The notes below the pieces were generated by a model, which saw only the letters and a program-made list of their open reading frames with translations, was not told the origin of the DNA and ran no database searches. A stretch of 59,013 bases of DNA, filler included, from Dugesia japonica (taxonomy: Eukaryota): assembly GCA_001938525.1 (NCBI GenBank). It is 6 parts of 6 records of this genome, joined end to end, with 100 filler letters (N's around TTAATTAATTAA, not from the genome) between each part and the next. Parts side by side here need not be neighbours in the genome. Positions count along the whole stretch, not along the records: positions 41,398 to 50,422 come from MQRL01580971.1; 5 more parts are not named here. One strand, 5' to 3'. Shown here piece after piece: positions 6,559 through 58,549 of the stretch (positions within the stretch are counted from its first letter, which is position 1; every line of letters begins with the position of its first letter). Made by a program: the position numbers and the translations under genes.

Positions 6559-6759
6559 AACAAGATTAGAGAAATTATTTCCCTTACTCCAATAAAATAA
6601 ATTTTACTAATCCCAAAAGACCAAATCCCAAAACACTTTTTAGATTAACCACTTTATTTAGAAAGAATGATCTTAATTCTTAAATTTGATAATTTACTTT
6701 TTAAATCTTCAATTGTATATTTTTGGTATTTTCAAATAGATAATACTTGTATTGACAAG

Positions 6760-8303
6760 TATTTTCAAATAACCAAAAATCAAATAATAGATTTGGAAGA
6801 GCTAGACAATTAAACAAAGCACAAGTTGGAGATATATTATTTTCATTTATGAAAAATGAAACTACACCAATAAATTGGAAAGAAGAAACATATTTAATAT
6901 ATTTAGATGAGAATTCTTTGTATGCAAGTTGGATTAAGCAATTNNNNNNNNNNNNNNNNNNNNNNNNNNNNNNNNNNNNNNNNNNNNNNNNNNNNNNNNN
7001 NNNNNNNNNNNGAAAGAAGAAACATATTTAATATATTTAGATGAGAATTCTTTGTATGCAAGTTGTATGACAAAACCTTTACCAACAGGAGAAATTAATT
7101 ATTGTCAGGACTTAATTTATACACCAGCAAGTTCAGAAGTTAATTATGTTTATGAAGTTGATTTAGAATACCCAAAAGAGATTTATGAAAAGACAAAATA
7201 CTTTCCATTAGCACCAAATCCTTTAAATATTACAAAAGAAATGCTAGCATCATATCAATTGTCTTTTGAAAAGAAATTAAGTAAGAAAAATATTAAATTA
7301 ACATTAAATCAATTTTATAAACAAAATTATATTATTTTAGGAAGTACTTTAGGTTTATATTTAAAATTTGGAATGAAAATATTAAAAATACATTCAAAAT
7401 ACAAAATGCCAACAAAACCTTGGTTAAAAAATTACATTCCATTTAATATTGATCAAAGAAATTAAGCAAAAAGAAATAACAATGTTTTTGGAGATTATTT
7501 CTTTAAATTATTAAATAATGCTTTCTATAGAAAAACTTTGGAAAATATAAGAAATAGGTATAATGTTGAAATTGTAGATTCAGATAAAGATTATCAGAAA
7601 TTTGCTAGTAAAATTAATTTTAAATCTAGTAAAATATTTAGTTTCAAAGAAAATGGTGAAGTGGAATCAGTAGCAATTCATCTTCATAAAACAAAATTAA
7701 AATATAATAAATTTTCTTACATAGGATTTACTATTTTAGAATATGCTAAAGAAGTAATTTACGACTTTATTTATCATTAGATGGATTAAGCAATTCTTAA
7801 TAAATATAAAATTCATTACTGAGATACAGATTCAATTTTTGTAGAAATAATAGGACAAGAAAATTTAAATAAAGTGACAAGTTTATTAGGAAATAATTTA
7901 TTTGAGATGAAAGATGAAAAACCAAAATTCTGAAATAGTTAAATGTAATTTTATAAAAGCAAAAAGTTATATTATTCAAGATCAAAGAATAGAAATATAG
8001 AATAGAATATAGAAACAAAACATAAAGGAGTTTCTAAAACTAATAAAATAGGGATGTAACATTATGATAAAGTTTGAAGTAACCCTAAAGAAATAATATA
8101 TGGTACTAATCACAGTTTAAAATCACATAAACATGAAATAGAATTAACTGAACAAAAGAAAATTGCTTTAACAGGGTATGATGATAAAAGATTAATCGAG
8201 GACAATGGAATAATAACTTAGCCACGTGGAAATAAGTTTAAATGTGAAACTTGTAATCAGTGGCATTTAAGATTAGATAAATTATTAGGGAAAAATTGTT
8301 TAA
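6760..8303 (+). pseudogene. Protein-primed family B DNA polymerase, C-terminal half
   Basis: YLDENSLY, YEVDLEYP, KLLNNAFY-x-KTLEN, Y-x-DTDS and YDDKR motifs; several stops. Confidence 0.9.
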
Positions 8304-16570: not shown

Positions 16571-17665
<1,095 letters not shown>

Positions 17666-21098: not shown

Positions 21099-24000
21099 AC
21101 CTGTTAATGTAGTAAAGAGTTACGCTGGTGTAACACGTGGAGAACGTTTCGTAGAGAGGAGACAAAATATTGTAAAAGTTACGAAAAGAACAGAACCAGA
21201 GTGTTGAACATGCCAGAATTATGGGCATACAAAAAGAGAGTGTACAAAAAATTCTCATGTGTAATGGTGGACTTGTTACAAGAAAAGGCATTTAAGTAGA
21301 AATTGCCCGGACAAGAAACTACCAAAATGTTTAAGGTGTGGTAAGATTGGTCATCGCAGAAGGATGTGCACAGAAATTGTATGTGGGGGATGTAAAAGAC
21401 TGTGTCACAGAGTAGAAGAATGTTATTCGAACATTAATAAACCTAGACTAGAAGAGAGAAGATACAATTTTAAAAAGCAAACAACAATCAAAAGATTGGA
21501 GTCGGACAAAACCAATTTATGCCATTCGAGAAGAATTTGATGATGAGAATGAAGAGAGATTCTCTGAGAGCATAATATAAAATGAAGATCCAAGAAGAGA
21601 ATACCCAAAAGGCAGGGCTCCACCAGTAGAGGAGTTGGTTGGTTTTAATATCCTCAAGAGACCGAGAAATGGAATGAGACGAGTAAAGTAGAAGAAACGG
21701 TGTACAGATTCTTAAAAAGAGATAGTTTTAATGATGCGGAAGTTAACAAAGCAGAGGTGATAGGAATAATTGGAGAGAAACAGAACTCAGAAATTTGTAC
21801 GATAAAATGCACGTGAGACCTAGAATTTCAGTGATAATCAAGGGTGAATAGTTTGATTTTTTGTTGGGCACAAGAGCAAGAATATATGTGATGAGCATAA
21901 AAGGATTTAATAGACTCAGAAAAACCATGTTAGAGAAAAGCGAGGAACTATTGTATTGCGCCAAAACCAGCTCACTGGAGACGATTGGAAAGATACCTGT
22001 CGAAGTTTCTGAGGTGTGCAAGAAAGTAACATTTATAACAGTAGAAAATTTAATACCAGATCTAATTGGTGGAATGAAATTTTAGAATACTTTTAGGTAT
22101 CATCTGCAAAAATGTGCAGGGTAGACATCAATAATTATCGAGAAAAATTTGTTTCAATATCGAGGCAAAACTTTTAAGACAAATACAGATGGCTGAACTA
22201 TTGTGACATGCAATGGAGATTCTAGAAATTAACAAATATCATAGATTGACTGTCATTATTCAGAATAATGAGCATGTATTTATGGCGGATAAATGGGACA
22301 TCGGATGTACACACTTAACGAAGCATCGAATGTTCACTAAAGAAGGTCCAATCAACATAAAACCGTATCGGCAANCAATAAATCTAGAGGAAAAGTTTGA
22401 TGAGGCCATCAAGAACCTATGCAAAAGGCCTATAGCAAAACGGATGAAAAAGTTGAAAATTACATTTGCAATATTGAAGCGAAATTTGGGAGACAAATTA
22501 AAAAAGGAGAGGGATTGACAAGACCCTTAAATAATTTGGAGATTAAAGACGATCGATGGTTTTTGAAAATAATTGAAAGTAAAGAAGATGCTTTTATGGC
22601 AGATAAATTAAATGTGGGACGCACACAACTGACAAAACACAAAATAATCACAAGTGGTGAACCAATCAATGTAAAATCATACATGAAACAAGTGAACCTA
22701 CAATCTAAAGTTGAAGAAGCTATCCAAACCTTTTCCGAGAATAATATTATCCGGAAATTCAACTCGCCATGGAATATCCCACTGATCTGTATTTGGAAAA
22801 AAGAAAAGAAAGACATAAAAAAATGTTTGAATTTCAGACAATTGAATGCAGCAACGAAAAGACAAGCCATTTCGATATCCAATGTAGACGAAATGTTGGA
22901 CAAGTTAGATAGACCTAAATATTTCAGTTCAATAGATTTTGAAAATGCGTACTATCAGGTAGAGCTCGAAGATGAATCTCAAGAAAAAACGGAGTTTCCA
23001 ACGAAGAAGAACAATATTGTTTTAATAGAATGCCATATGTCATTGAAACGGGCCATTTCAGAAGATGATGACAGGTGATACGTGGAATTAACGGAGCTAT
23101 GGCTTATCTTGATGAAATTCTGATATTTACGAACAATAACGATCAACACTATGAAGTAAGTGAGTATTGACGTATATAATGAAGGCTGGTTTAAGAATTA
23201 AACCAAAAAGTGTCAGTTTCTTCAAAGCGAAATCAAGTTTCTTGGACACATAATTAGCAAGGATTGTGTCAAAACTGATCGGTCTAAAAATGAAGCAATA
23301 AGTACATTTGGCAAGCCTAACTGTGTGAAGAAGCTGCAAAAATTATTTAGGAATTTGTAATTATTACAAAAAGCTTATAAAAAACTACGCAAGAAAATCA
23401 AGGATCTTAAAGCCATTGTTTAGTGGATCATGCAACAAGAAGTTAGAATGGACCGAAGAAATAAACGATACTTTAAGGGTCTGAAGAAATCTCTAATGTC
23501 TGCGCCAATATTATGTTTCCAGACATAAACAGAGTATTTATATTAGATACAGATACCAATTTTGATAAAATTGGAACAGTATTGGTACAGAGAGATAAAG
23601 AAGGAAGAGAAAGAGTTGTTGCCAACGGATTACACCCAATGACGAGTCATGAAAATTGATATTGCATCACACGAAAGGAATTATTGGCAGTGTATTATTT
23701 ATGCATGCACTTCAAACATTACTTGTACGATAGAAGATTTACTCTTAGAACAGATAATTAAGCTCTAACTTTCATGATGACGACGAAGAAACTAATTACG
23801 TCACAATTCCAGACATAGATTAGTTTAGACATGGGGATTTAGACATGGTTTTGAAATATATAGAAAAGAAATTCAACTTGGTAATGAAGATATGTTATCT
23901 AGACCAATATATGAGGTTTGTGGACAATGTCAAATGTCACATTAAGATGTCAAGAAAGGGAAGATTAAAACGTGAATACTAAACATAATTGAAAAGGAAA

Positions 24001-24915
24001 AAGAAGAGCAATTAAAAATTTCTGAGGAAATAGATTTTATCAAGAAAATAAAAATTTTGGATGAAATACATAAACTTTAATGTCATATTGCAGTTGAAAA
24101 GGTTTGCAAATATATTAGAAACAAATATATTGCGAATAATTTGTGGAGCCAAATACAGAAAATAGTTCGTAGTTGTGAACTTTATCAGAAGATGAAAGTA
24201 GTGATGACAGCAACTAAAGGGAAAATAAAGAAATTAGAAGATACCAATTTGTTTGAAGTCATATTCATAGATATATGTGGGTTAATGCGGTAAAAATTAT
24301 ACAAAATACATAATTGACCAGTACAGTAAATATCTGGGTCTTATACCATTGCCTAGACAAGACTTAGAAACAATACGAAAAGCTATTTTTAAAAAGTAGA
24401 TAATGAGATTTGGATGTCCAAGAGAAATAAGACTAGATTGAGGAAAAGCTTTTGAATCCTGGGTATGCGAGAGTTTTCACAAAAGATAGATATTAAACTT
24501 TGCTTTGCAAGTCCCTACCATCAAAATGCAAACAGAAAAATTGAAAGACAGTGCAGAACAATTTAAGATTTAATTAATGTAACACTTCAGAAAGGAAAGT
24601 CAACAGATTTGGCAGATCTTTTATTGGCAATAGAATGTACTAATAGAATAATAGATCGTTTTTGGAAAGAAAATTTGAAAAGAAAAGTAGTGAGTCAGAC
24701 GTTTCAGATAAAATTAAAGAAAACACTTCAGACGTGATTACTAACAGATAATTCGAATTAGGCGATTTTGTACTCATCAATGTAGAAACAAGAAATAAAA
24801 GTCAAGACAGAGTTGAAAGAACTTATCGAAAATTGACAAAGTTCATGAAACACGGTATACGGTAGAAGGAGTAAATGGATAGCGATTAAAAAGAAAGTTT
24901 TTTATGAAGGGGATA
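21099..24915 (+). mobile_element. Degraded Ty3/gypsy internal region (gag-PR-RT-RH-IN)
   Basis: Double zinc knuckle CLRCGKIGH..CGGCKRLCH; SPWN; YLDEIL; ILDTD; integrase core; purine tract before 24916. Confidence 0.92.
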
Positions 24916-32504: not shown

Positions 32505-32604
32505 NNNNNNNNNNNNNNNNNNNNNNNNNNNNNNNNNNNNNNNNNNNNTTAATTAATTAANNNNNNNNNNNNNNNNNNNNNNNNNNNNNNNNNNNNNNNN
32601 NNNN
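32505..32604. other. Artificial contig linker
   Basis: N44-TTAATTAATTAA-N44. Confidence 0.97.
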
Positions 32605-33740
32605 AATTCCGGATGACAAAATACATGAGACAATCGAAGAAATACATAAATTATTATGTCATGCAGGAGTTGAAAGTGTTGTACGAATATATGAAAAACA
32701 AATATATTGCAAAGAAATTGTGGAGCCAAATACATAAGATAGTTCGTAGTTGTGAAATTTGTCAGAAGACCAAAGTAGTGACAACAACAACTAGAGAAAA
32801 GACAAAGAGATTAGAAGCTACAAATTTGTTTGAAGTCATATTCACAGATATATGTGGGCCAATGCGGGAAAAAAGTGAACAAAAAAATACATTCTTGGAA
32901 TAATCGACCAGTACAGTAAATATATGGTTCTTATAGCATTGCCTAGACAAGACGAGGAAACAATACGAAAAGCTATTTTTGAAAAGTGGATATTGAGATT
33001 TGGAGGTTCAAGAGATAAGATTTAATTGTAGAAAAGCATTTAAATCCAGAGTTATGAGAGATTTTACTCAGAAGCTATATATTAAAATTTGCTTTTCAAG
33101 TGCCTATCATCATAATGCAAACAGACAAATCAAAAGACAGTTCAGAACAATTCGAGATTTTATTAATGCAACACTTTAGGAAAGAAAGTCAACATATTTG
33201 GCAAATCTTTTACCAGAAATAGAATTTACAATGAACGCAACAAAGCAAAAGACGACTGGAAAGAGCTCGGCTAAGATCTTATTTGGAAAGAAAATTAGCA
33301 GAGAAAAGTGATATGAGTCAGACGATTCAGATAGAACTAAAGAAAAGAGAATTCAAAGTCAGCGATTTTGTGCTAATCAAGGTAAAAACAAGAAATAAGA
33401 GCCAAGACAGATTTGAAGGACACTATCAAATAATTGAGAAAATTCACGAAAGACGGTATGCGGTACAAGGAGAAAATGGACAGCGATTAGAAAGATTTCT
33501 TAAGAAAAGGGATTTGTGGAAATAATTATTATTTAATAAATTTGAGCCAATAAAAATTGAGACAATTCTGGATAAAGATTTTAAAGCTACTATTCAAATA
33601 TCATTTCTCTTATTATATAAAATTTAGAGTTGATATAGAAAACTATATAACGTCTAAAAATATGAGTTCTGATTTGAATAACTAGTTACCAATTGAAGAT
33701 TTACCGAAAAATTTATATTCAACAACTTTTAGAAAATAAT
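32605..33740 (+). mobile_element. Ty3/gypsy integrase, PPT and LTR start; same family as 21099-25140
   Basis: VRSCEICQK and DICGP motifs; high similarity to 24050-25140. Confidence 0.9.
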
Positions 33741-33749
33741 AATCAATGG

Positions 33750-36383
33750 ATTAAAACCAAGAATTATCTAATAATTAAAATAAATAAATTAAATGAAACT
33801 TTTATTTCTCTAAATAATCACAATAAAAATATTAATGATAAACTTTAAGAAGTTGAACAAAAAATCAAAAAGCTCACAAGTATTTCTTCTCCCGAAAAAT
33901 TTAATAAAATCAATTTAGAATTAGAAACGTTTAATTATAAAATCAGCAAAGTTTTATATAAAATCGAATTTAATAAACAAATGATGAAAAATCCTTTAAT
34001 TTCTTAAGANNNNNNNNNNNNNNNNNNNNNNNNNNNNNNNNNNTTTAATTTCTTAAGAAAAAGAATTTATTAAAATAAAGAAAGATCTTCATATTGATCA
34101 TGTTAAAGAAGTTAATGATTATATTGATAAATGAAAAAAATAAGCATAATTAGAAATACTTTATGAACAAGATTTATTAAACAAGATTAAAGAAATAATT
34201 AATAATTATTTTCCCTTTTTTATTTTAAAAAGTTATGGTGATATGATGTAATTATAATAAGTAATAATGATGTATTAATTTGCATATTATTCACTTTTAT
34301 TATAAAAAATGATTTACCAAGTTATTATGGTTTAATACCTCCATTTAAAATAAAAAGAAAAGGAAGTATAATTAATCCTGAAATCAAGAATGATAACATA
34401 ATAAAATATTATTTCCTTGAAAAACCATTAGAACTTTATTTTCGTTTAAATAGATTAAGAGATATAACATATTTTATAATCCAAGGATATTGTGATATTT
34501 CATTTTTTGAAATATATGTAATGATTAATAATATACCAAAAGTATATGAATACAACTTTATTCAAAAACAAGAATTTACTCTTTTTATAGAATATCAAGA
34601 AATATTAACTGATAAATAAATACATGTAGATAGAGTTACTTTAATTTTACCCAAAAATATTTATATTTATAAAATTATTATTTTAAGTGATTACTCAATT
34701 GCTAAAAAATCATATTCTGAATTATTAGTAAATCCCATCTCTAAATTATCTCTAAAATAAAATAGATGAGCGAATACGAGAAGATCTAACACAACCCAAA
34801 GGTGATAATCAAAATGAAAATGAGCGAATGCAAGCTTTAGATAATGTAAATGAAGAAAGAAATGAAAAACTATTCAAGATTTCAGGTCTAAATTATCAAA
34901 TTTAAGAATAGTAGATTTTGAATCAGATTTAAATTATATTGATGATAAAATTAATAAATAATAATTAATAAATAAATTAATAAATATTTATTGAAACTTG
35001 TGTTGGTATAACTGGAATAATTTTAATTTCTTTAGGAACTTTCGGAGATTGTGGTTATTCCACTTATTTTAACTATAAAAATTTCTTGTATTCATATAAT
35101 TGAAACTTTAAATTCATCTTTAATAAAATCAAAAAAGAAGAAATATCAAAATTTAATTCATGAGTTAGAAACTGTAAAAAATTAATTATTTTTATTACAC
35201 CAAAAACTTTATCTGATGATATACTTACAGATGATGAAATTGCAATAAGCAAAAATATGGTTAAATAAGTTAAAGATTTTATTTCACATGAAAAAATTAA
35301 GAATATTATTATAATATTATTATAACTATAACAAGGATATTTTAAAGAAACTTGAAGAACAAATTGAAAATCAACAAAACGTTATTAATAAATTAAAGAA
35401 ATAGTCTCACGACCGCGGTCGTTACTTATTATATTTAGAGATTTTAATTTTAATTTGTGATTTTAAAAAGGAATAACGCGTTATTTATTTTTTTGAGATT
35501 CTTAATTTTAGAAATCTGCGCACGCGTGCACCCATTTTTAGAATTTGAAAAAAGCGATCTACGCTCACATTTTTTAATTTAAACAATTAAATTTTCCTGC
35601 TAATTTATCTAACACTGGATGCCAATTATTACAAACTTGACAATAAAACTTATTTCTATGTGANNNNNNNNNNNNNNNNNTATCTTCAATTATTCTTTTG
35701 TCATCATAACCAGTTAAAGTAATCTTATTTTGTTCTATTAATTAAATTTTATGTTTTTGTGATTTTAAACTATGATTAGTTGCATTAATTATTTCTTTTA
35801 AATTTTTTAAAACTTTATCATATTCTTTCATTCTTATTTTATTAATTTTTGAAACTCCTTTGTGTTTAGTTTCTATATTTTTGTTGGTATTCTCAATTAT
35901 ATAACTCTTTGCTTTTATAAAATTACATTTAGTTATTTCATCATTAGGTTTTTCATCTTTGACTTAAAATAATTCATTTCCTAATAAACTTTCAACTTTA
36001 TTTAAATTATCTTGACCAATGATCACGACAAATACAGAGATTGTATCACTATAATGAATTTTGTATTTATTTAGTATTTTATTTTCTAATTGATTATATA
36101 TAAAGTCATAAATGACTTATTTTGCATATTCTAAAATAACAAAACATATATATGGGAATTTATTATATTTCAAATTAGTTTTTCTCATATGCATAGCAGC
36201 TGATTCAGTTTCTCTCGTTTCTTTATAACTAAATATTTTGCTAGATCTAAAATTTATTTTTGAAGCAAATTTCTGATAATCTTTATCTGTGTCAACTATT
36301 TCTACATTACATCTATTTCTTATGTTTTCTAAAGTTTTACCATAAAATGCATTAATCATTAATTTATAAATGTAATCACCAAA
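33750..36383. mobile_element. Degraded Polinton segment, copy B
   Basis: Fibre C-terminus (SPEKFNKINLE), an unknown ORF, the membrane protein (+) and pPolB C-terminus (-). Confidence 0.85.
35580..36383 (-). pseudogene. pPolB C-terminal fragment
   Basis: NAFYGKTLENIRNR, HYSDT and GYDDKR motifs. Confidence 0.88.
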
Positions 36384-37335: not shown

Positions 37336-38514
37336 TCAGGTAACTTGCCAAAATTCTGTATTTGTGGGATTTTTGGTTTCAACCAATTTCTTTCGAAAAC
37401 TCAATTCAGTTTTATTTGTTTCTTGACTTTGTCTTAATTTATAATACGAATTATTAATTGAATTACTATTATTTTCTTTTCTAATTATATATAATCTGAC
37501 AAAAGCAACCAAACGATCTCGGAATTGTTGACTTGATGCTAAGTAAATGACAATATTAAAGCAATAATGAGAAAGACTTAGCAAATCAATAATTTCTTTT
37601 GCATCATGCATTTTGAAATGTCTGATCCAAGTAGGATCATTTTTCTTTTGTTCAACTGATAAAGTTGAGTTACCTTCAACATAAAAATTTTGACCGAGAT
37701 AGGCAGCTCCTATTGGTAATGTGGTTAAAATATTGAAAAATGAAACTAATAGTAAAGTAGTTGTTGTTGATTTAAATGAAATACTAGTTTCAGTATTTCC
37801 ATTTCGTTTCGTTTGCTTTTTACACTTTTCCGTATCTGTTTTCTGATAAGTAATATCTGATCCAGATATACGATACATTTCAATAATAACACGAATATTC
37901 AATCCCAACGTAATTATAGGTATCAAGGCACTGATCAAGAATTCCAAACTTAAAGAATAGATAACAAAGTATGTATTGTTTCTCCAGTCAGAAAGAAAAT
38001 GACAATTTGGTTCATAATGCCATACGAAAAACTGTGGAAAAACTGATATGAAAACTGTTAAAAATATCAAACCACAAGCTATCCAGGCTCGATTTTCCGT
38101 ACAACAACTTTCTCTTTTGAAAGGATAACATACAGCGATCCATCTTTCTAAAGTAAAACCAAACACCAATGGTACAGAATTGTATTGAAAATAAAAATAA
38201 ACAACATTAAACGTCTTACATATTCCTCGAATATCAATAATTCCAAAACCCCAAGAGGTTCTCAAGTAATATATAATACTTAGTAATATAAGAAAAAAAT
38301 CATTTACAGCCAACATTGCCATATAAACTGCAGAAGAATTATTCCGACGTACTTTTCTAGATATCCACACAGTAAATGAAATGGGATTTCCAATTAATCC
38401 AACTGCTAAAAAGAATGGCATCATAAACATGTGTAATTGATAAGATATTGGTAAATATTTCTGCCTAAATTCAATAGGCGTTTCTTCGTCTGACGTTGAA
38501 AGAGTACCGTTCAT
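37336..38514 (-). CDS. Rhodopsin-class (class A) neuropeptide-type GPCR, intronless
   Basis: Seven hydrophobic segments; GLIGN (TM1), LAVND (TM2), Cys before TM3, ERWIAVCYP, IP in TM5, NIVIY (TM7), FR helix 8; resembles FMRFamide/sex-peptide-receptor-like groups. Confidence 0.92.
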   Translation of the reverse strand: MNGTLSTSDEETPIEFRQKYLPISYQLHMFMMPFFLAVGLIGNPISFTVWISRKVRRNNSSAVYMAMLAVNDFFLILLSIIYYLRTSWGFGIIDIRGICKTFNVVYFYFQYNSVPLVFGFTLERWIAVCYPFKRESCCTENRAWIACGLIFLTVFISVFPQFFVWHYEPNCHFLSDWRNNTYFVIYSLSLEFLISALIPIITLGLNIRVIIEMYRISGSDITYQKTDTEKCKKQTKRNGNTETSISFKSTTTTLLLVSFFNILTTLPIGAAYLGQNFYVEGNSTLSVEQKKNDPTWIRHFKMHDAKEIIDLLSLSHYCFNIVIYLASSQQFRDRLVAFVRLYIIRKENNSNSINNSYYKLRQSQETNKTELSFRKKLVETKNPTNTEFWQVT

Positions 38515-44876: not shown

Positions 44877-46147
44877 TTTCTTTTCATAATGTTATCATTG
44901 TTCTAAAAATTTTAATTAAATTAAAATTAACTTATAAATAAAATTTACTTCCATTAGGGTTTTATTTATATTGTTTGTATTCATGTTTAGTATATGTAAA
45001 ATAAATATTTTTTCAAGAGAAATAATAAACTTACTTATATTGATTTGGAGTTATGGTAAAATAATGTATGTACTTCGTTTATATATATAGTAATTACCAC
45101 ACATAAACATGGCATTTTTTTTACTGTTACACACAGAAAACATGTGGCAATTTATGTAATCAATTTCGTGACAATTTATCAAAAATAAAAGATAAAAGCA
45201 CGAGTTACTATATTAAGTAATAAATATTTCATCTAGGAGATGTAAACATTAAAATACATAAATAACAAAACTATATTAATATACAATAAATAAAAATTAC
45301 AACTAATTTCAAACTAAAATTTATTCATTGTTTTCCTTATTTTGTACATGACATCATTCCAATTATAGTTTTGAAAACAACATTATTATTAAGATTATTA
45401 ATTAAAAATTCTTTACAAAAACCTTTCAATGATTATCTTCCAAATATTCTCGTAATGATTGATTTTTAACATTCATTTTTAATATTTTCTTTTTTATAAT
45501 GCTATTTTAAAATACTTATTACAATGAAAAACAAAATTAATGTAATTAAACAAACCACTACCATTCAAGAAATATTTGATTTTACATAGATTTATTTAAA
45601 TTCTAATAAGAATGTTCTAGAATCATTTGTTTTACTGTATTAATATTATTATAGTTACACATTTCTTCCAAACATATATATAAATCGACACTTTTAGTCA
45701 TTATTCATTATTTAAAAATGCAAGTTAGAAAAGAAAATGCTTCAACTGTTGATGTCAAATGTGGAAAACACAAAACAATTATAAATATGAAATGGTTTTC
45801 CTAAGGAAATCATTAATATATACATTTCAAGTACTATTTTATTCATCATCAACTAGTATTATCAGCCACATTAACTTTGAAATTGTTGAGATAATCTTGA
45901 TAATTCAATGATAAACAATTTTTGGTTTCTTCTATAATCTTTGGAATCTTGGAACTTCGATGACATTTCACGAAAGTTATTATGAATTCATCATCATCAG
46001 TGATATTATATTGATTGCATGGATCCAACTGTTTCATCATTTCTTTTTGTGTTTCTGTCAACATTTTTCTTTTATGACATGATGATAATTTGATTTAGTT
46101 TATATAGTTTAAAACACCCAATCAAAAATAATATTGAATCTGACTGG

Positions 46148-46595
46148 TTAATAATCATGAATCAAACTTTTAAAATCTTTTCTTATTTCTTCAACTAATG
46201 ACTGATAATAAAATGTTTTGATACCAACTAATACAATCTTTCCACTTGAAAATACATTAACACATTGGATCATATTATCCAAGACGTAAGTCTTGAAATA
46301 AATCAGGTTCATACATACATTTGATTTTTCTTGCTAAATCACATAAATTAAAAGATGGTTTTAAACTGATTACAATTGTTAGCGACTGTAGTTGAATATT
46401 TTTGATATCGTATTGCAATTTCTTTGGTTTTATTGGCTTCATACATACCATAATTCTACAGTTTCCGGTTTGGAAGAATACGATCGTATACTTGCCAGTT
46501 TTCTCCCCAACTTGAGGTGGTTTTCCTTTTGGAAATTTCATTTTGTTGACGACTTCTTAATCCACTTTCCTTCTATAATTAATATTTGCAATCAT
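46148..46595 (-). pseudogene. TATA-binding-protein-like gene, copy 1
   Basis: MIANINY...TIVFFQTGNCRIM (repeat 1); FNLCDLA...MYEPDLFQDL...VNVFSSGKIVLVG (repeat 2), matching TBP YEPELFPGL and IFxSGKxVxxG; two stops and one frameshift. Confidence 0.75.
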
Positions 46596-46627
46596 TATTT
46601 ATGACTAAAAGATTTTCAAAAAGGGTA

Positions 46628-46643
46628 TTTATACATGTATAAA
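46628..46643. promoter_or_regulatory. Back-to-back TATA boxes (palindrome TTTATACATGTATAAA), putative bidirectional promoter
   Basis: Perfect 16-bp palindrome between the divergent TBP-like and ATPase starts; conserved at 47365-47380. Confidence 0.6.
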
Positions 46644-46686
46644 CAATAATAATTAAAGTGATACGTTTAAACAAGCATAAATTATA

Positions 46687-47070
46687 ATCGAATTAAGAAA
46701 TGATGCAGTCTATCAAGTTATTGGTCCAAGTGGTAGTGGAAAAACTCTGTTTGTTTGCAAATTGTTGAAATCATATTTATTCAAGTCAAAATTCAACAAA
46801 ATATATTGGCATATAAGAGCAGATGAGGNNNNNNNNNNNNNNNTGAATTCAGTGGTATAAAAATGACTAATATAAATGGATTCGATGAAAATTGGAACAA
46901 GAGATGATATGTATCACGAAGCAAACAAGGAAAAAGACTAATAATTTATTCATAAAGATATAGAGACATTCATCTATTTCATCAAGGTGGTGATCATAGA
47001 ACTCGTAATTTGAATGTTCAATACTTGGTTATATTCAAAAATCCAAGAGATCAAACTGTTGTTGATAAAT
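46687..47070 (+). pseudogene. A32/FtsK-like DNA packaging ATPase, copy 1 (internally deleted)
   Basis: YQVIGPSGSGKT Walker A; RTRNLNVQYLVIFKNPRD. Confidence 0.85.
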
Positions 47071-47134
47071 GTCTAAATTTACTAAAGTGTTAGTTGATCC
47101 AGAAAGGATTAATCAAACCAAGAAAGTCAACAAT

Positions 47135-47333
47135 GACTATTCTGGATATTATACTTTAAATCCTTTGATCTTATTGGTTTCTTACAACCCATGATTCTAC
47201 AACTTCCTCATTGAAAGAAAACAAGGTTATGCTTGTCTGTTTTCTCTACTACTTGAGAAGATTTTCCACCTGAAAATCTCATTTTTCTGGTTCCTTGATC
47301 AAAATTTCCTCTGTAATTAATATTTCCAATCAT
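47135..47333 (-). pseudogene. TBP-like gene, copy 2 (N-terminal half only)
   Basis: MIGNINYRGNFD...NLVFFQ*GSCRIMGCKKP. Confidence 0.65.
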
Positions 47334-47364
47334 TATTTACGAATAATTAATTTTCAAACTGGTA

Positions 47365-47380
47365 TTTATACCTGTATAAA
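47365..47380. promoter_or_regulatory. Back-to-back TATA boxes, copy 2 (TTTATACCTGTATAAA)
   Basis: One mismatch from copy 1; spacing to both start codons matches within 1 nt. Confidence 0.55.
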
Positions 47381-47424
47381 CAATTATTAATTCAATTGAT
47401 ACTTTTAAACAAGTATAAATTATA

Positions 47425-48007
47425 ATGGAATTAAGAAATTATGCTGTTTATCAAATTGTTGGACCAAGTGGTAGTGGGAAAACTTTGTTTGTGTGAAAAT
47501 TATTGAAATCAAACTTATTAAAATCNNNNNNNNNNNNNNNNNNNNNNNNNNNNNNNNNNNNNNNNNNNCATGCAATGACTCAATCAGCATTTTGCGATAT
47601 AAAAATGACAATTATTAATGGATTTGATGACAATGTGATTGTTGTTGATGATTTATACCAAGAAGCTAATAAGCAAAAGGACTTTAAATATTAATTCTCA
47701 AAAATATCAAGACATTGTGGTGTTACTGTGATAGTTATTAAACAAAATATATGTCACCAAGGTGAGGATCATAGAACACGTAATTTAAATGTTCAATATT
47801 TGGTTATATTTAAAATTCAGAGAGATTAAATTGTTGTTGATTTTCTTGCAAGACAAGCGTATCCAAATAATCGACAAATTCGATTGGATTCCTTTAAAAA
47901 TGCAACAGCAATGCTTCATGGTTATATTTTCCTTGATTTTACGCAGCAATGTTCTGATGATCTTAGAGTTCGAACTGATATTTTCAATCCAAATGGTGTT
48001 ACAGTCT
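47425..48007 (+). pseudogene. A32/FtsK-like DNA packaging ATPase, copy 2
   Basis: GPSGSGKT, VIVVDD (Walker B), SRH, QN, NVQYLVIFK and HGYIFLDF motifs; stops and frameshifts. Confidence 0.88.
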
Positions 48008-48159
48008 NNNNNNNNNNNNNNNNNNNNNNNNNNNNNNNNNNNNNNNNNNNNNNNNNNTAAACAATAAAATGTAAGTTGATTATTTCTTACGAAATGTCTA
48101 AATTTTCTAAAATTTTAGTAGATCCTCATACAATTAAACTGGTTAATAATCACATGACT

Positions 48160-49540
48160 AATCAATATGTGTATTTAAATGACTTTATTGAGTATTTTGT
48201 GTGTATTATATTAATATATAGAGTATGTTATGTGTGTATTATAACATTTTATTGCGTTAATTATGTATATTTATATATCTATTTAAATACTTATATTTAT
48301 ATTATGTATATAGTTATTATAGGGTTTTATCTGTCATTATAGGGTTTTATATAAGCATTTTGATCAAATTTTTCGAAATTAAATAGATTTCTTTTTAATC
48401 TTTTAAATCTTTTTAATATAATAATTATCTTTTCAAACCTAACATAAATGTCAATAGAGTCTAACAAAAAAGCCCCAATAGAGCTTCATACACAGTAAAC
48501 TATTAGATATTATACATACAATACACTCAATGAAGTCAGTAGATTCATACATACATTAAACAATGTAGAGTCATATAATACATACAAGAAATCTAATAGA
48601 GGGATATAATACACACGATAAACCCAATAAAATTCATAAAATACACATTAAACCTCATGAAATCATATAATACACATACCTACAATTAACCCGATAAATT
48701 CAAAAAATATACATAATTAACGCAATATAATGTTATAATGCACACATAACATACTCTTTATATTCATATAATACACACAAAATACTCAATAAAGTCACTT
48801 AAATACACAGAATAAACCTAATACATACAATAAACCAAATATTGTTATATAATATGTAAAATAAACTTCATAAAGACATATAATACATAATAAACTAAAT
48901 ATAGTCATATAATACACAAAATAAATCCATTAAAACATACAATACACAAAATTAATTAATAGAGTCAATAATTATACACAAATAACTCAATCGCACTAGT
49001 TAAAATCATATTATAAACTCCATACTTACAGTTATATGCGTATAATAAATCCAATATAGTCATATAATACACATATTGGATTATATGTGTATATACATAC
49101 AGATATCCTCAATGAAGTCACTTAAATACACATAAATAACTTAATATAGTCTTATACATAGAAAGCCAATTAGTCTTATACACTAAATCCTATAGGGTTA
49201 TATATTACACATATTTAACGCAATAAAACCATATAATAAATCATATAAAGTCAATTAATACACATAATTAACCTGATAGGGTCTTAAAATACACATAATT
49301 ATCTCAATATATTACTATAATACACATATTTAACCGTCTAGAGTAATAGTATACACACAATGAATCCTATAAAGTCTTATAATACAAGCAGTAAACCAAA
49401 GAGAGTCTTATACATATACGAAACCAATGGGTATTATAAATAAAAAACCAATAAGTCTTATACACATAATAAACCTAAATATTTCTTATACACATGAAAC
49501 TAATGGGTCTTATACACACTAACTAACTAATCTTATACAT
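48160..49540. repeat. Degenerate minisatellite of about 30 bp with an internal inversion
   Basis: ataatacaca and aaacccaata-like motifs recur about every 30 nt; 48168-48272 is the reverse complement of about 48706-48808. Confidence 0.75.
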
Positions 49541-50540: not shown

Positions 50541-50736
50541 CATGGTAACCACAATGACCTTGACCTACTTTTTTGAAATGACCTTGACCTAGTTTCAGTT
50601 GCTAAGTACGGTTGCCATGGTAACCAATAACCCAGATACCATTGCTAAGGCGGTTACCATGGTAACGACCTTGGCCTACATTGGTTGCCATGGCAACGGT
50701 TACCATGGCAACGGGGGGTCCCCCCCTCTTGACCTA
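50541..50736. promoter_or_regulatory. Cluster of RFX X-box palindromes and TGACCTTGACCT (DR0) motifs
   Basis: GTTRCCATGGYAAC at 50611, 50653, 50684 and 50699; TGACCTTGACCT at 50555 and 50579. The motifs are certain; a regulatory function is not. Confidence 0.5.
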
Positions 50737-50799
50737 CTTTGTCCTCGTGTCCTCCTATCTATCTACTTATGTAGTGAGTAAATATCCAAATTTCATGGA

Positions 50800-53243
50800 A
50801 AATGAATACAAAGAATTTTGAGGAGAATATATTCATCAACAGTTCTTTGAATTTTTAAATAAATTAAATAATGAATTAAAAGATATAAAAGAAAATAAAT
50901 TAATTAAAACTTATACTGGAACTAATCATCCAGAATTTAGTAATCAAAACTGTAGATATTGTGATAAAGAAATGGGAACTGAAAAACCATTAATTGATCA
51001 TGATCACTTTAATGGGGGATTCAGAGGCTATTCTCATTCAAGATGTAATTTACAAGATAAATCAATAAAAAATTATTCATACCATTCTATTTTCACAATG
51101 CATCAGGTTATGACAATCATTTATTTGTCAAAGAATTAATTAGTAAATATCCCAAAGAAGTTAGAAGAATAATTTTCCATGCAGATGAAGTTTATATTTC
51201 CTTTGAATTTGGAAATTCAAAAGAACCATCAATAAGATTTTTAGACTCTGCAAGAATGTGTCCATTTACATTCATTGAAAAAAATGGGTGAAATGTTAAA
51301 TCAATCTGGAAATTATAATCATTTGAGATCTTTTAATTTACAATCGAAGAAAATATCATTTCCATATGAATATGTAAAAGGAGAACATATTAATCAAGTA
51401 ATTGAATTATTAAAAAGTAGTAACTTTCCAGGAAAAGAAGATTTTAATAATATATTAAGACAAAAGTAAATAAATGATCAAGAATACAATGAATTTTTAC
51501 AAGATTTTAATCAATTCAACAATTTATGGGATTATATGTTACATTACTAGAAACTAGATGTAATTATTTTAGCTGATTTCCTTGAAAACATTAGAGAAAC
51601 ATGTTTAAATAATTATCAAATTGATCCAAGTTATTGTTACTCAGCTCCAGGCTTAACTTGGAATTCTGGAATGAAATTCACTCAAGTAAAATTAAAATAT
51701 GCTTAGAAAGAATGTTATGAATGATTTAATAAAATAGAAAGAGGAGTTTGATGTGGATATTCAAGTGTTTGAGGTGATCGTCAGGTCTTTTCAAATAATC
51801 AAAAATCAAATAATAGATTTGGAAGAACTAGTCAATTAAACAAAGAACAAGTTGGAGATATATTATTTTTTTTAATTAAAAATAAAACTACTTCCTTCGG
51901 TAGCGATTGTAAAGGAGAGCCGATAAATTGGAAAAAAGAAACATATTTAAAATATTTAGATGAGAATTCTTTGCATTCAAGTTGTAAGACCAAACCTTTA
52001 CCAACAGTTGAAATCTATGAATGCAAAGACTTAACTTATACTAAATCAACAGATAAAATTAATTGTTTATGAAGTTGATTTAGAATATCTTAAAGAGATT
52101 CCTGAAAAAACAAAATACTTTCATTGACGACAGATCCATTAAATATTACAACAGAAATGTTTGCTCCTTATCAATTATCTTTTGATAAAATGTTATCTAA
52201 GAAAAATATAAAATTAACATTAAATCAATTTGACAAACAAAATTATATTATTTTAGGAAGTACTTTAGATTTATATTTATCTCTAGGAATGAAAATATTA
52301 AAAATACATTCAAAATACAAAATGCCAACAAAACCATGGTTGAAAGAATATATTCAATTTAATATCGACCAGAGAAATGAAGCTAAAAGAAATAATAATG
52401 TTTTTGGAGATTATTTCTTTAAATTTTTAAATAATGCTTTTTATGGGAAAACTTTAGAAAATATAAGAAATAGATGTAATGTTGAAAGTATAGATTCAGA
52501 TAAAGATTNNNNNNNNNNNNNNNNNNNNNNNNNNNNNNNNNNNNNNNNNNNNNNNNNNTCAAAGGTTTGCAAGTAAAATTAGTTTTAAATCTATTAAAAT
52601 ATTTGGTTTCAAAGAAAATGGTGAGGCGGAATCAGCAGCAATTTCTCTTTATAAAACTAAATTAAAATATAATAAATTCCCTTATATTGGTTTCACTATT
52701 TTAGAATATGCCAAAGAAGTAATTTACGTTTTTATTTATAATATGATGAATAAAACAATACCAAACAAGTATAAAATACATTATTCAGATACAGATTCAA
52801 TTTTTGTAGAAATAATTGGACAAGATAATTTAAACAAANTAACAAGTTTATTAGGAAATAATTTATTTCAAATGAAAGATGAAAAACCAAATTCTGAAAT
52901 AGTTAAATGTAATTTTATAAAATTAAAAAGTTATATTATTCAGGATCGAAATCTTAACAGGTCCCAAAATATATAGAAACAAAACATAAAGGATTTTCAA
53001 AAACTAATAAAATAGGAATGGAAGAATAAGATAAAGTTTTAAGAAATCCAAAAGAAATATGGTANCAATCACAGTTTAAAATCAAAGAAACATGAAATTG
53101 AATTAACTGAACAGAAAAAGATAGCTTTAACAGGGTATGATGACAAAAGATTAATTGAAGAAAATGGAATAAGGTCTTGGCCCCATGGAAATAAATTTAA
53201 ATGTAAAGTTTGTAATCAGTGGTATTTAAGATTAGATAAATAA
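50800..53243 (+). pseudogene. Polinton protein-primed PolB, near-complete catalytic region
   Basis: CRYC..DHDHFNGGFRGYSHSRCN (EndoVII-like), FHNASGYD, FLDS, FPYEY, YSAPGL, YLDENSL, NNAFYGKT, YSDTDS and DDKR motifs. Confidence 0.93.
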
Positions 53244-53269
53244 AAACAAAAATTAAATTGCAATTTCTT

Positions 53270-53593
53270 TAAAAGGTTTTAATGCATAAGAATCAAAATA
53301 ATATGGAGAAGAAAAAGCAACCCAATGAGTACCTTTTTGATTTGAATTTTGATAATTAATAATTATCGGAACTCCTTCCAGTCGTGAGCGTAAGCAAACT
53401 GACGCACGCGTGCGACATTTATCTTTATTTAAAGCATTAAGGAAAGCGTCACACGTGACGCTTTATTCATCTTTCATTAATTCTTTCAGTTCTAAATTAA
53501 AAAAATCAGCAAAAGAATACAAATCAAAATTAGTTTTAGTATTTATTCCAAATGTTTTTAAAAAGTCTAGAACTGAGTTTACGTAAGACATTT
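53270..53593 (-). pseudogene. Adenain-like protease, 3'-truncated
   Basis: GTHWVAF..YFDSY is present, then the gene breaks. Confidence 0.8.
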
Positions 53594-54625
53594 TCTAGTA
53601 TGAACTAATAAAGAAATAGTTTGACCATAAAAATCTATAGGATTATTATTTTCATCTATAATATTAAATTTTAAAAAATCAATACGTTGGGAATTTAATC
53701 TTGAATAAATTGGGGGATAAAGTCTTTATATAATTTTAAAACTAAAACCAACATAATTTACTGGAAACGAATATAATAAATTCATTATATTATAATTTGA
53801 TATAATTGATATAATTTCCTTTAACTAAATTACAAGTTATATTTATCATATTAATATTTAAAATACCAATTTTATTTACTGGATAGTATTTTCCAACTGA
53901 ATACTGGTTAGGTAAAAAACCTAAAATTGTTCGAAAAAAAGATTCTTTATTAAATTTAATTGTATTTTCTTTTATGAACTAATAAAGAAATAGTTTGTCT
54001 ATGAAAATCTATAGGATTATTATTTTCATCTATAATATGAAATTTCAAAGAATCAATACGTTTGGAATTTAATCTTGAATAAATTGGAGGATAAAGTCTT
54101 TCTATAATTTTAAAACCAAAACCTACATTATTTACTGGAAAAGAATATAATAAATTCAATGGTATGGCTTGATCGTTGGTATTTATATAATTACCTTTAA
54201 CTAAATTATAAGTTATATTTATCATATTAATATTTAAAATATCAATTTTATTTTCTGAATAATATTTTCTGAAAAACCTAAAATTGTATGAAAAAAAGAT
54301 ATTTCATCAAATTTAATTGTATTTTTTTTAATATCTAAATTACAGTTTGTTGTTAATTGATCTGGTGTAACTTCTATTCTATAATCTTTTAAATTATTAG
54401 ATATTTCTTTAATTTCATAAACACCTGGTTCTATTGTTTTTGTTTATATTGTTCCTGTCCTTGTTATAATTCAAAAGTATTATTTTTATTAGTAACATTA
54501 AAAATAATATTATAACAGCTAAAACGCAATAACCCCATTTCATATTCAGAATCTAATTCAATTGAAAATCTTAAATTAACTTTAAGATCAGATTCTTTAC
54601 CAACAACTAAAAATTGATGAGACAT
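53583..54625 (-). pseudogene. Penton-like gene with a tandem partial duplication of its 3' half
   Basis: MSHQFLVVGKESD start at 54625; the C-terminal half occurs twice (about 53970-54340 and 53583-53965). Confidence 0.8.
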
Positions 54626-54640
54626 TTTCTTTAGTATACT

Positions 54641-55570
54641 TTAGGTTAAGTATTTATTTTTATAAACATTATATTTTTTTTGAGTAATTAATTCCTGTTT
54701 TAATAATAATTTATAAACAGATTTAATTTGTTTGTATAAATTATTATGTCCTGCTTTTACAGCTGAAATTAATAATATTAATCTTTCAAATAAAGAAAGG
54801 GGATGATTCGAGTTTAAACCTTCTACTTTGATATCTTCTTTTTCCACTGGGATTTCTTTTATAGGTTTTTCTTTTTTAACTTCTCCCCCAGTTAAAAATT
54901 TATAATATTTATTTTGATGATGAAATTTAATATTAAATTTATTTAAATAAATATCAATTGCTTCAGGATCATTACTTCCATTTCATAAATTTAAATTCAT
55001 TAACTCTTCAAAAAAAGGAATTACTTTTTTATTATTTTGAAAGTAATTTTTCCCATTCTCTTCAAATAAATATATTTCTGTTATAGAACATCTATAATTA
55101 GGATAAATTATTTTTTGAAAGTTTTTATTATTAATAACTTCAGTTATAAATACGGGTATAACTGTTGGAACTTTTAAAAATTCAGTATTTGTAAAAGTAC
55201 TTGAAAAGAATTAAATTCTTTTTTCAAAAAGATTTGTTGGTTTTTTACTTGAATGGGACCCTCTAAGATTTTCAAGTGCTTTAATAATAGGTTGTTGTTG
55301 TACAGTTAAATCAGCTTGTAAAGTTTTTGACTCAATTACATTTCCACTAAATAAATTATCATAGTTATCATGAGCTTTAATTAATTCTTTTAAAAGTTTT
55401 ATTCTTTCTATTGCTTGTTTATTATCCATTTTCATAAGGATTTTTAAAAGGTTTTAAATATGAACCATCTCCTTTAATTTTAACGTGTATTCCATTTTTA
55501 AAGTTTCTAGTAATCATCTTCAACTCTGAATTAGGTAAACTATTTTTAAAATATCTTAATTGAACTTCAG
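54641..55570 (-). pseudogene. AGHNN-motif protein plus the C-terminus of the core protein
   Basis: Homologous to 3780-4739. Confidence 0.75.
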
Positions 55571-55899
55571 TAGAAGGATAATAGCACACAGGAACATCCC
55601 CCCCCGGAGGTAAAATTTTTTTCCATCCGATTTCTTTTTGGAATTTTTTGTATTTTTTTTTGATGTTTTTTAGGGAGAGGGGGGACTTTTTATTTTAATG
55701 AATTGAATTTTTTTGCAGGTTTTCATTAATATAAGAAATAAAAATTGAATTTTTTGTTTTAATGAAGTGGAGAGGGCGGCATTGCCGCAGTATGAGTTAT
55801 CGGGTTGTATTTTTGTTTTAATAAATGAAATATTTTGTTTGAATTCTTGGAATTTTTTGTTTTAATTAAGAAAAATTTAATTTTTTAATTTCCGCAAAA

Positions 55900-56550
55900 T
55901 GGTCAGGAATTCCAAGTCAACTGTAACTTATTCAATACATGAAATTTTTTTAATTTATTTAGCACATATTAGACATTTTTGACCATATAAATGAAACCTT
56001 TAAATATCATAGACCATATTACTATGGAATCTTTAGCATTCCTGCTGAAACCGGCATATTTATTTGAAAATGTACATTATTTGGTGGAAGAACTAGTTTA
56101 AAATCAACATATACTACAAATGGTGGTGTCAGACATTTTGATAAATCTTTAAACTCTAAAAATTTTTCTGACGGCATGGTATATAGAGTTGTACCGGTTT
56201 GGATTTTCTGGAAAATTATCACATGCTTCTCAAATACTTATTTATGTCAAAATCCATTTAAATTATTTGAATACCAATTTGATCTTATTCTCACACCTCC
56301 TTTAGTATACCGATTTAACAGTTTGTTCAGATCCATTACAGCCATGTAATGGTACTTGTTGTCATCTTCTAGCATCAACAAATAGATTTTCTCACCGTTA
56401 TATACTCTATTTATGTGAATGATATCTAAATTGGGATGTTTTTAAACCTCTTCATCATCATCTTCAACATTATTTGAATTCGACGAAAGTACATTGATTG
56501 AAAGACCTGTATTTTTCTTTCGAATTTCCGAATACTATCAAATTTCATTG
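55900..56550 (-). pseudogene. N-terminal pPolB fragment, possibly from a different Polinton family
   Basis: IRKFE..NTGLSINV, IYLLML..KYHYMAV..LNKLL and PPFVVYVDF motifs. Confidence 0.7.
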
Positions 56551-58056
56551 GCAATTATAGCTGGTTTAGCTTCTACAGCTGGAATTTAACCCTGAATTGC
56601 TAGTAAAGGTAGTAATTCTAGAGATGCAATTAAAAAGGAAAAAGAAACCGAATTAGTAGAATTACAGAAAAAAGATTTAGAAAATAAAATTAAAAAAGAA
56701 AAAGAAATTGAATTATTAGATAAAGATATTGCTTCAAAGAAACAAGGAAGTGGACTTTACTTAAAACCATATCAAAGAAGTGCAACTCATAAATATTTTG
56801 AAAATAGTTTAGATAATTCAGAATTGAAAATGATAACTAAAAACTTTAAAAATAGAATACAAGTTAAAATAAAAAGTGATGGTTTATTTTTAAAACCTTT
56901 TAAAAATGGATAGTGAACAAATAACAGAAAGAATAAAACTTTTGAAAGANNNNNNNNNNNNNNNNNNNNNNNNNNNNNNNNNNNNNNNNNNNNNNNNNNN
57001 NNNNNNNNNNNNNNNNNNNNNNNNNNNNNNNNNNNNNNNNNNNNNNNNNNNNNNNNNNNNNNNNNNNNNNNNNNNNNNNNNNNNNNNNNNNNNNNNNNNN
57101 NNNNNNNNNNNNNNNNNNNNNNNNNNNNNNNNNAATTTTATCACCATTAATTACACCAACATTTGAAATAGAAAATATTGATAATAAAAACTTTCTAAAG
57201 ATAAGTTCTCTTAATGAAGAATCATATTTATTTGAAGAAGATGGAAAGAAATACTTTTTATCTAAAGAAGAAGTAATACCATATTCTAAAGAAGTAATGA
57301 ATTTAATTTTGAGAAATGGAAGNNATGATTTAGAAGCAATGAAANTTTATTTTAAAAAATTAAAGATTAGATTTCCTACTAATTCTAAATATCGTGATTT
57401 ATTAACAAGGAAAAAAGAAGCTATTTTTAGTTGTTTGGAAAGAGTCTGATCTTAAGGTTAATTTAAGACTTCCTATAGAATTAAATTCAGATTATGATAT
57501 GGGATTATTATGTTTCAGTTGTTATAATATTATTTTTAATGTAACTAATAAAAATAATACTTTCTACTGTAATGATAAATTAATAACTATAGAACCATGT
57601 GCTTATGAAATTTAAAAAAATATCTAATAAAATGTCAAAGTATAAAATTGAAGTTACACCAGATCAATCAACAACAAAATGTAATTTAGCTATAAAAGAA
57701 AATACAATTAAACTTAATAAAGAATCTTTTTTACATACAATTTTAGGTTTTTTACCTTACCAGTATTCAGTTGGAAAATACTATTCAGAAAATAAAATTG
57801 ATATTTTAAATATTAATATGATAAATATAACTTGTAATTCAGTTAAAGGAAATTATATCAATAATATAACAATGAATTTATTATATTCTTTTCCAGTAAA
57901 TTCTGTTGGTTTTGGTTTTAAAATTATAGAAAGACTTTATCCTCCGATTTATTCAAGATTAAATTCCAAACGTATTAAAATTTAATATTATAGATGAAAA
58001 TAATAATCCTATAGATTTTCATAGACAAACTATTTCTTTATTAGTTCATAAAATAA
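56548..58056 (+). pseudogene. Core protein, AGHNN-protein fragment and penton-like gene (third copy of the module)
   Basis: Homologous to about 3600-5440, with an internal deletion near 57420. Confidence 0.8.
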
Positions 58057-58057
58057 A

Positions 58058-58549
58058 ATGTCTTTGAATTATACAGTTCTAGATTTTTTAAAAACATTTG
58101 GTATAAATACAAAAACTAATTTTGATTTGTATTCTATTGCTGATTTTTTAAATTTAGAACTGGAAGTATTAATGAAAGATGAATGTGACGACCGCTGTCG
58201 TCAAAAATTAAAAGATAAAAAAGCGGCCCTGCAGGGCCGAGTTTGCTTGCACTCACGACTGGAAGGAGTTCCTTTAATAATTAATTATCAAAATTCAAAT
58301 CAAAAAGGAACTCACTGGGTTGCTTTTTCTTCTGGTTTTTATTTTGATTCTTATGGATTNAAACCATTTAAAGAATTAGAATCAAAGGTAAAGGTTTATA
58401 ATGAAATTCAAGTTCAACCGTTTGGAACAAGTATTTTTGGAGTCTTATGTTTATATTTTTTATATATGCTTAAATATCGCAAAGGACCCCAATCTTTTAA
58501 AGAAATAATAAATGAATTAATAAATGAAACCTTTAAAGAATTACTTTAA
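58058..58549 (+). CDS. Adenain-like protease; ORF open but catalytic Cys replaced by Phe
   Basis: GTHWVA and YFDSYG present; QVQPFGTSIFG here versus SICG in copy A. Confidence 0.85.
   Translation: MSLNYTVLDFLKTFGINTKTNFDLYSIADFLNLELEVLMKDECDDRCRQKLKDKKAALQGRVCLHSRLEGVPLIINYQNSNQKGTHWVAFSSGFYFDSYGXKPFKELESKVKVYNEIQVQPFGTSIFGVLCLYFLYMLKYRKGPQSFKEIINELINETFKELL

Follow-up and report, generated by a model that had tools for sequence, protein, structure and literature searches.

A TATA palindrome between TBP-like and packaging ATPase genes of a decayed Dugesia japonica Maverick resolves into a host-type TATA box and a TATAAAC box, the latter a candidate target of the viral TBP

In beta- and gammaherpesviruses, late genes are driven by a viral TBP-like protein acting on TATT boxes (excerpts of PMC4893493), and the DNA face of the viral TBP is rich in polar residues (excerpts of PMC12529657). 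The Maverick elements considered here resemble this herpesvirus vPIC (EBV BcRF1, KSHV/MHV68 ORF24, CMV UL87) in having a viral protein of TBP fold and a one-base TATA variant before structural genes, in the canonical TATA found before other genes, and in a more polar DNA-binding face on which phenylalanines are retained. They differ in that the variant base occupies position 7 (TATAAAC) instead of position 4 (TATT), and in that the Maverick protein stands alone, with 150 aa and a C-terminal repeat near that of cellular TBP, whereas the herpesvirus factor is a large multidomain protein in a six-member complex; unlike the herpesvirus vPIC, the Maverick is an integrating 15-kb element, and its system is a predicted one. 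No homology to BcRF1, ORF24 or UL87 was found beyond a weak fold similarity (BcRF1, E = 9e-3; U58, E = 4e-3) that lies far below the similarity to cellular TBP, and the likeness to the herpesvirus protein is at most one of convergence, not of membership.

With cellular TBP and TRF (PF00352), the Maverick protein shares the saddle fold, the YEPELFP stirrup and three of the four intercalating phenylalanines, but its N-terminal repeat is shortened, without the long second helix or the conserved first-stirrup aromatic, and its base-reading residues are changed. Giant viruses (Nucleocytoviricota) also have a viral TBP fold, for example of the ASFV B263R-like type, and gave matches in the viral structure library; most of these viruses supply an RNA polymerase themselves. 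None is encoded in the Maverick loci examined, so that a Maverick TBP-like protein would have to use that of the host. With Mavericks/Polintons (adintovirus/MELD) the window family shares the A32 ATPase, and its relative L081 also a pPolB, an rve integrase, an adenoviral-type protease and a DJR capsid; terminal inverted repeats and a 6-bp target duplication are hallmarks of this group. Starrett et al. marked a TBP-like gene in certain MELD genomes (excerpts of PMC8502044 and bioRxiv 697771); the word 'promoter' is absent from both main texts, and these excerpts give no motif or function; the available part of the supplement text contains no match for TBP or the motifs. A literature search combining TATAAAC with maverick, polinton or adintovirus, with subscription journals outside its reach, returned no paper on the motif among the matches listed; a search on TATAAAC late promoters in viruses returned none on Mavericks by title, and one combining TATAAAC, Hoogsteen and TBP found none.

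The window, by which we mean the whole stretch of DNA analysed (59,013 nucleotides of Dugesia japonica, filler included), has the AT-rich character of animal DNA and contains host genes along with numerous decayed mobile elements. Two intronless host-type ORFs lie on its minus strand, one of the tubulin-tyrosine-ligase family (16571-17608; Pfam TTL, 1e-99) and one coding for a rhodopsin-family GPCR (37336-38514; 8e-19), and decayed LTR-retrotransposon-like pieces (integrase, RT-like, gag-like) are found at 11793-14468, 21265-24640 and 32553-33525. A packaging ATPase of the A32/FtsK type occurs twice on the plus strand. Copy 1 (46687..47066), located by tblastn with intact ATPases, has a broken start codon, frameshifts, an N gap and an internal deletion; no ATG is present at 46687-46689, and its start position was inferred from copy 2. 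Copy 2 (47425..48006), with stops and an N gap, is 75% identical to P0335, and PF04665 was found on the ATPase homologs, as expected of the A32/FtsK ATPase of a Maverick. A TBP-like gene faces away from each ATPase on the minus strand: copy 1 (46157..46595) is interrupted at codon 13 by a stop and near 46250-46264 by a frameshift, and copy 2 (47139..47333) retains the 5' part only, with stops. The region holding copy 2 of both genes (47134-48006) is a partial second copy, 77.5% identical to the first, and the genes of both copies are broken. Just past these Maverick fragments comes a tandem array (48545-49404) of diverged units, each about 31 nt long.

The TBP-ATPase pieces are isolated fragments in the window, and the PolB and protease pieces elsewhere in it resemble a second Maverick family, present in several decayed copies at 3479-8300, 35685-36368 and 50669-58549 (PolB, protease-like and other ORFs). 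GC-rich perfect palindromes at 5573-5592 (20 nt) and 58224-58239 (16 nt) lie in or just before protease-like ORFs of that second family. Contigs of the host species from three runs align to the stretch at a very high summed depth, at least 1e5 compared with about 10 for single contigs, which indicates a high-copy family. Within 47424-47436 there are three places where the alignments, of DNA and of RNA alike, break off with loose ends and so mark many ATPase copies that have other upstream sequence, and several subfamilies with other layouts thus appear to coexist in the host.

Between the two genes of copy 1 lies TTTATACATGTATAAA (46628-46643), a perfect 16-nt palindrome by sequence check in which two boxes stand back to back around a 4-bp centre; it recurs in copy 2 at 47365-47380, where one changed central base renders it imperfect. 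The outward-facing TATAAA that the original prediction placed on either strand is present as described in both copies, and the spacing it gave is borne out as well, the TBP-like ATG lying 32 nt away in copy 1 (ATG 46595) and 31 nt in copy 2 (ATG 47333), and the ATPase start 43 nt away in copy 1 (46687-46689) and 44 nt in copy 2 (47425). The idea of a single symmetric palindrome fared worse: the two arms differ, and perfect symmetry is private to copy 1. When genomic copies were aligned on copy 2, the central base showed no variant at or above 10%, and most copies share the imperfect centre of copy 2. Perfect palindromes of at least 16 nt occur at 10 further non-repeat places in the AT-rich window, and these, together with the imperfect centre in copy 2 and in most genomic copies, indicate that the symmetry itself is not the feature. 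Identity between the two window copies is 15/16 in the palindrome against 62/76 in the flanks (P = 0.21, not significant); across the genomic copies, whose alignment is biased toward similar ones, variable places number 0/16 in the palindrome against 14/75 in the flanks, with changes private to copy 2 counted among the 14 (P = 0.052). Comparison with other Maverick families alone shows the arms to be more than chance.

The TBP-like gene proved to be what the original prediction took it for, a real TBP homolog. The broken window copy alone falls below the cut-off of Pfam TBP (PF00352), and its intact relative P0003 (151 aa, 56% identical to the window gene) matches this family at 4e-15 (55.7 bits, cut-off 22.9). 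We found 182 intact homologs among 188 candidates; a search of a representative library gave 771 matches, cellular-type TBPs probably included, and searches of viral contigs, genome contigs (TBP alignment) and phages gave no match. For several TBP-like homologs the length of the longest contig (e.g. 3793, 6631, 4228, 1398) equals that of an ATPase homolog, which hints that a single short contig often carries both genes. The AlphaFold (AF2) model, computed on 98 homologs (pLDDT 95.8), has a saddle fold and matches solved TBPs (Foldseek E 3e-9, TMq about 0.7), with a TBP-like C-terminal repeat that keeps its stirrup and a short N-terminal repeat in which the second helix is not extended. F41, F100 and F116 are invariant in the 98 sequences, and no conserved Phe occupies the aligned fourth place. 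The paired Asn/Thr base-reading residues are likewise not kept, since the Asn of the C-repeat is Ser in 95/98 sequences and both Thr positions are changed. Relative to a eukaryotic TBP taken from locus L058 as reference, near-fixed changes comprise V to R47 (97/98), T to M49 (98/98), N to S71 (95/98), V to T73 (89/98), I to R104 (96/98) and L to N114 (97/98). Altered specificity in yeast TBPm3 involves positions 194, 203 and 205, and R104 and N114 correspond to two of the three, 194 and 205 (excerpts of PMC1636458). The register of the first strand and stirrup in the N-terminal repeat is uncertain (hhalign probability 20%), and F21 might substitute for the missing first-stirrup aromatic. In TBP generally, reading the 3' half of the box falls to the N-terminal repeat, and the stirrup glutamates presumably have a role in recruiting TFIIB/Pol II.

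The right arm of the palindrome is part of TATAAAC(A), a late-type motif that points toward the ATPase on the plus strand, at 46638..46645 in copy 1 (49 nt before the ATPase start position) and at 47375..47382 in copy 2 (50 nt before the ATPase ATG); over 47363-47383 of copy 2, no variant reaches 10% among the aligned genomic copies. A third TATAAAC (46098..46104, minus strand) lies just past the TBP-like gene and before a possible decayed next gene, and the ORF downstream of it has weak homology to L009:719 (E = 0.24). At 48058-48096, a TAAAC directly follows an N gap and stands 36 nt before the ATG that comes after ATPase copy 2, which is compatible with a further TATAAAC box whose first two letters are unreadable. 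The second decayed Maverick family of the window, which may or may not carry a TBP-like gene, has TATAAAC within 125 nt of 0/4 checked starts.

A metagenome scan with the TBP-like family kept 80 loci, of which 15 family loci were used (L001-L010, L012-L015 and L023), L011 being left out as a duplicate of L008, and 64 distant TBP loci were set aside for loose comparison. Maverick genes are present in several of the 15. A later scan with the ATPase alignment yielded L081 and L082, the second a fragment with neither TBP-like gene nor motif that was left out. L081 is a Maverick close to complete, in which the core genes look intact and a TBP-like gene is present, its rve and protease recognised by Pfam, its capsid by Atlas, and its PolB by size, position and tblastn to the window pieces; it measures 12.7 kb and is binned in a bacterial MAG, probably as eukaryotic DNA in the bin. 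Small genes of no assigned identity also occur in related elements.

Across the resulting 16 TBP-carrying Maverick loci, TATAAAC is distributed 42:2 in favour of the gene strand. In the 15 discovery loci, where the motif was spotted by eye, the count is 31:2 (shuffle mean 6.2, maximum 15; 200 shuffles); in L081, recovered via its ATPase after the motif was noted, it is 11:0 (shuffle mean 2.8, maximum 8; 200 shuffles), and 8/11 of these sites fall within 15-125 nt before gene starts, a range that makes up 8.8% of the sequence (P = 5e-7). Because the motif was first seen by eye in the 15 loci, L081 alone is an independent test, of a single element (n = 1). Of 1395 7-mers compared for strand bias, TATAAAC is the highest that is not a homopolymer; no bias of that order is seen for any of its 21 single-base neighbours, and the other bases at position 7 give 33:22 (TATAAAA), 17:23 (TATAAAT) and 9:5 (TATAAAG). 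The motif precedes 16/18 ATPase, PX-like, integrase, minor-capsid, PZ, major-capsid and protease genes compared with 1/15 TBP-like genes (P = 2e-6), a count for which the labels mCP, PZ, PX-like and nuclease were assigned by order and size and the L001 PX-like start was shifted to the second ATG after the motif was seen. The two sites at integrase genes may in fact be those of short upstream ORFs, and without integrase the late-type count is 14/16; the exception among the TBP-like genes is L014, with TATAAAC 77 nt upstream. Distances from TATAAAC to the ATG range from 17 to 119 nt. The distribution is that of the herpesvirus system, in which a variant TATA stands before structural genes and not before the gene of the factor itself, with TATAAAC as the motif in place of TATT.

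These counts bear on the account by which the palindrome is a chance product of AT-rich sequence in a dead element. Such an origin would suit the other non-repeat perfect palindromes of the window and the P value of the two-copy comparison, but each arm fits a motif class that has its own position and strand bias in other families, and the 64 control loci, mostly prokaryotic and therefore a loose control, show 34:32 with no strand bias. Chance is thus largely refuted for the arms and holds for the perfect symmetry; as an explanation of the whole it has very little probability left.

TATAAAC as a poly(A) or 3'-end signal was rejected: 20/42 sites lie inside plus-strand ORFs of at least 80 aa, 9 to 547 nt before the stop, and upstream of the window box no same-strand gene was found, both of which speak against a 3'-end signal. 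The box might instead be bound by a host factor other than TBP, of the forkhead type, or by another viral protein. The forkhead consensus is RYAAAYA, and 29/42 sites continue with A and then match the forkhead core; unassigned small genes of related elements would leave room for the other viral protein. Against a forkhead factor, the motif shows strict orientation and needs its leading T: GTAAACA and [ACG]ATAAACA are each without enrichment at 8:8, and TATAAAC[CGT] is still biased at 13:1, on which grounds a plain forkhead site was rejected. We consider binding of TATAAAC(A) by either kind of protein very unlikely.

A further alternative is that host TBP/TFIID reads both arms, TATAAAC being a deliberately weak TATA whose firing depends on prior replication or on a further activator, and that the viral TBP-like protein is engaged elsewhere (as a decoy for host TBP regulators, in Pol III transcription or in host shut-off). 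Cellular TBP still functions on TATAAAC at a reduced level, a caveat for any viral reader, as plant TBP retains about 27% activity on TATAAACG relative to TATAAATA (excerpts of PMC10005294), and cellular TBP has been crystallised on the C(-25) variant box (partial record of PDB 1qn3); the TATAAAC comparison, moreover, covers TBP-carrying Mavericks only. Yet C at position 7 appears to be selected and not only tolerated, its 42:2 standing out from the counts for A, T and G, and the viral protein has altered residues toward the DNA that hardly vary within the family, so that we regard exclusive reading by host TBP as unlikely, if the most serious of the alternatives. The palindrome had been proposed as a target of the viral TBP, and of this the ATPase-facing TATAAAC survives as a good candidate, with the symmetric palindrome and the canonical TATA of the left arm falling away.

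The left arm carries the canonical TATA box TATAAATA (TATAWAWR), directed toward the TBP-like gene on the minus strand at 46626..46633 and identical at 8/8 positions in copy 2 (47363..47370, minus strand). An initiator-like TCATA at 46600..46604 (minus strand) gives a predicted +1 at 46602 and a 7-nt leader in copy 1. The first T of the box lies 31 nt before the initiator-like A, in agreement with the Pol II arrangement of TATAWAWR about 30-31 nt before an initiator. In copy 2, the initiator-like motif (47338-47342) is broken at 47340, a position at which 99% of the aligned DNA depth differs from copy 2. Elsewhere, TCA[TG][TA] occurs no more than 25 nt from the start in 11/15 other TBP-like genes compared with 2/18 late-type genes (P = 4e-4), and canonical TATAWAWR lies upstream of 5/15 TBP-like genes. 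Both motifs are present in 9/60 tabulated genes and are 30-32 nt apart in 8/9, the fitting initiator having been taken in the two genes where two were possible. The left arm is thus a predicted host TFIID promoter of the TBP-like gene, as judged by motif and spacing. A bidirectional promoter, as originally proposed, is upheld insofar as both arms resemble core-promoter elements facing divergent genes, and must be qualified in that the arms belong to two motif classes.

The same evidence weighs on the proposal that the viral TBP binds a symmetric bidirectional TATA palindrome and thereby activates its own gene together with the packaging genes. In its favour, neither arm is damaged in either copy, and at the 10% level neither varies across aligned copies; moreover, TGTTT, which is the AAACA half of the late box read in reverse, occurs at 43-66 nt before 9/15 TBP-like genes compared with 4/45 other genes, a count made by eye and post hoc. 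This TGTTT element could serve feedback, but it could equally be a forkhead site of the host or belong, as a U-rich 3'-end element, to an upstream gene. On the other side, perfect symmetry is confined to copy 1, the left arm is a host-type TATA with an initiator, and GTTTATA, the back-facing TATAAAC, stands 35-80 nt upstream of 0/15 other TBP-like genes, which argues against positive autoregulation through the gene's own TATA box. In addition, the TBP-like gene is head-to-head with the ATPase in 0/16 related loci. We therefore consider this proposal improbable, and some feedback on the TBP-like gene via the TGTTT element may nevertheless exist.

TGTTT or TTTGTTT is carried by L001-L003, L007, L010 and L012-L015, and in the window it is found on the minus strand at 46636-46645, overlapping the right arm, and at 46666-46673. 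The latter falls in a second, weaker palindrome-like stretch (46666..46681; 47404-47419 in copy 2), with a TTGTTT element on the TBP-like strand at -78. The extra TATAAA at 47414-47419, beside the ATPase ATG of copy 2, was rejected as a feature of the family; it is private to that copy, 99% of the aligned DNA depth differing at 47414.

Three RNA runs gave 217, 23 and 4 aligned reads, none of them 99% alike and all thus from other copies. In X15, RNA depth is 34 at the box and 43 at the TBP-like start, with reads covering the box itself; among these few reads, from other copies and from libraries without cap selection, no pile-up of starts was seen. The coverage fits read-through of dead copies and has no bearing on active elements.

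Collectively, the apparent palindrome is probably an early-type and a late-type Maverick promoter placed back to back, with host TFIID making the viral TBP early and the viral TBP reading TATAAAC late, by convergence with the way herpesvirus BcRF1/ORF24 acts at TATT boxes. Direct observations are the sequence itself, the existence of two motif classes divided among the genes of 16 loci, the fold of the TBP-like protein and its conserved changes toward the DNA; the steps that follow build on them. Early on, host Pol II/TFIID would use the left arm and yield the TBP-like protein, which would then bind TATAAAC, whose C at position 7 is presumably disfavoured by cellular TBP. Through its retained C-terminal stirrup, the protein might recruit host TFIIB/Pol II, and host Pol II would in this way be brought to the packaging and capsid genes late. 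With no more than 4 bp between the boxes in the window family, a protein sitting on the late box would tend to silence the promoter of the TBP-like gene, and steric exclusion, a negative feedback, seems likelier than activation; judging from this layout, any feedback on the TBP-like gene is more likely to be negative than positive.

It is an open question whether animal Mavericks/Polintons count as true viruses that run a timed gene programme, and virions are unobserved for vertebrate Mavericks (excerpts of PMC8097293). A dedicated packaging and capsid motif with a matching element-encoded TBP provides a concrete, testable model of such a programme; TATAAAC offers a simple sequence marker for annotating genes in Maverick elements, and the proteins form a natural series of altered-specificity TBPs from which to learn how position 7 of a TATA box is recognised by the saddle of TBP. 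More broadly, and with real hesitation, we put forward that there may be a widespread animal Maverick clade with a one-gene late switch, in which a minimal, re-specified TBP recognises TATAAAC and thereby directs host Pol II to the genes for capsid and packaging. In the window family the same protein would also silence the host-driven promoter of its own gene, 4 bp from the late box. If so, the herpesvirus vTBP strategy would have been invented a second time, independently, and an animal Polinton would for the first time have a defined early/late programme, which would point to a real virion-producing cycle.
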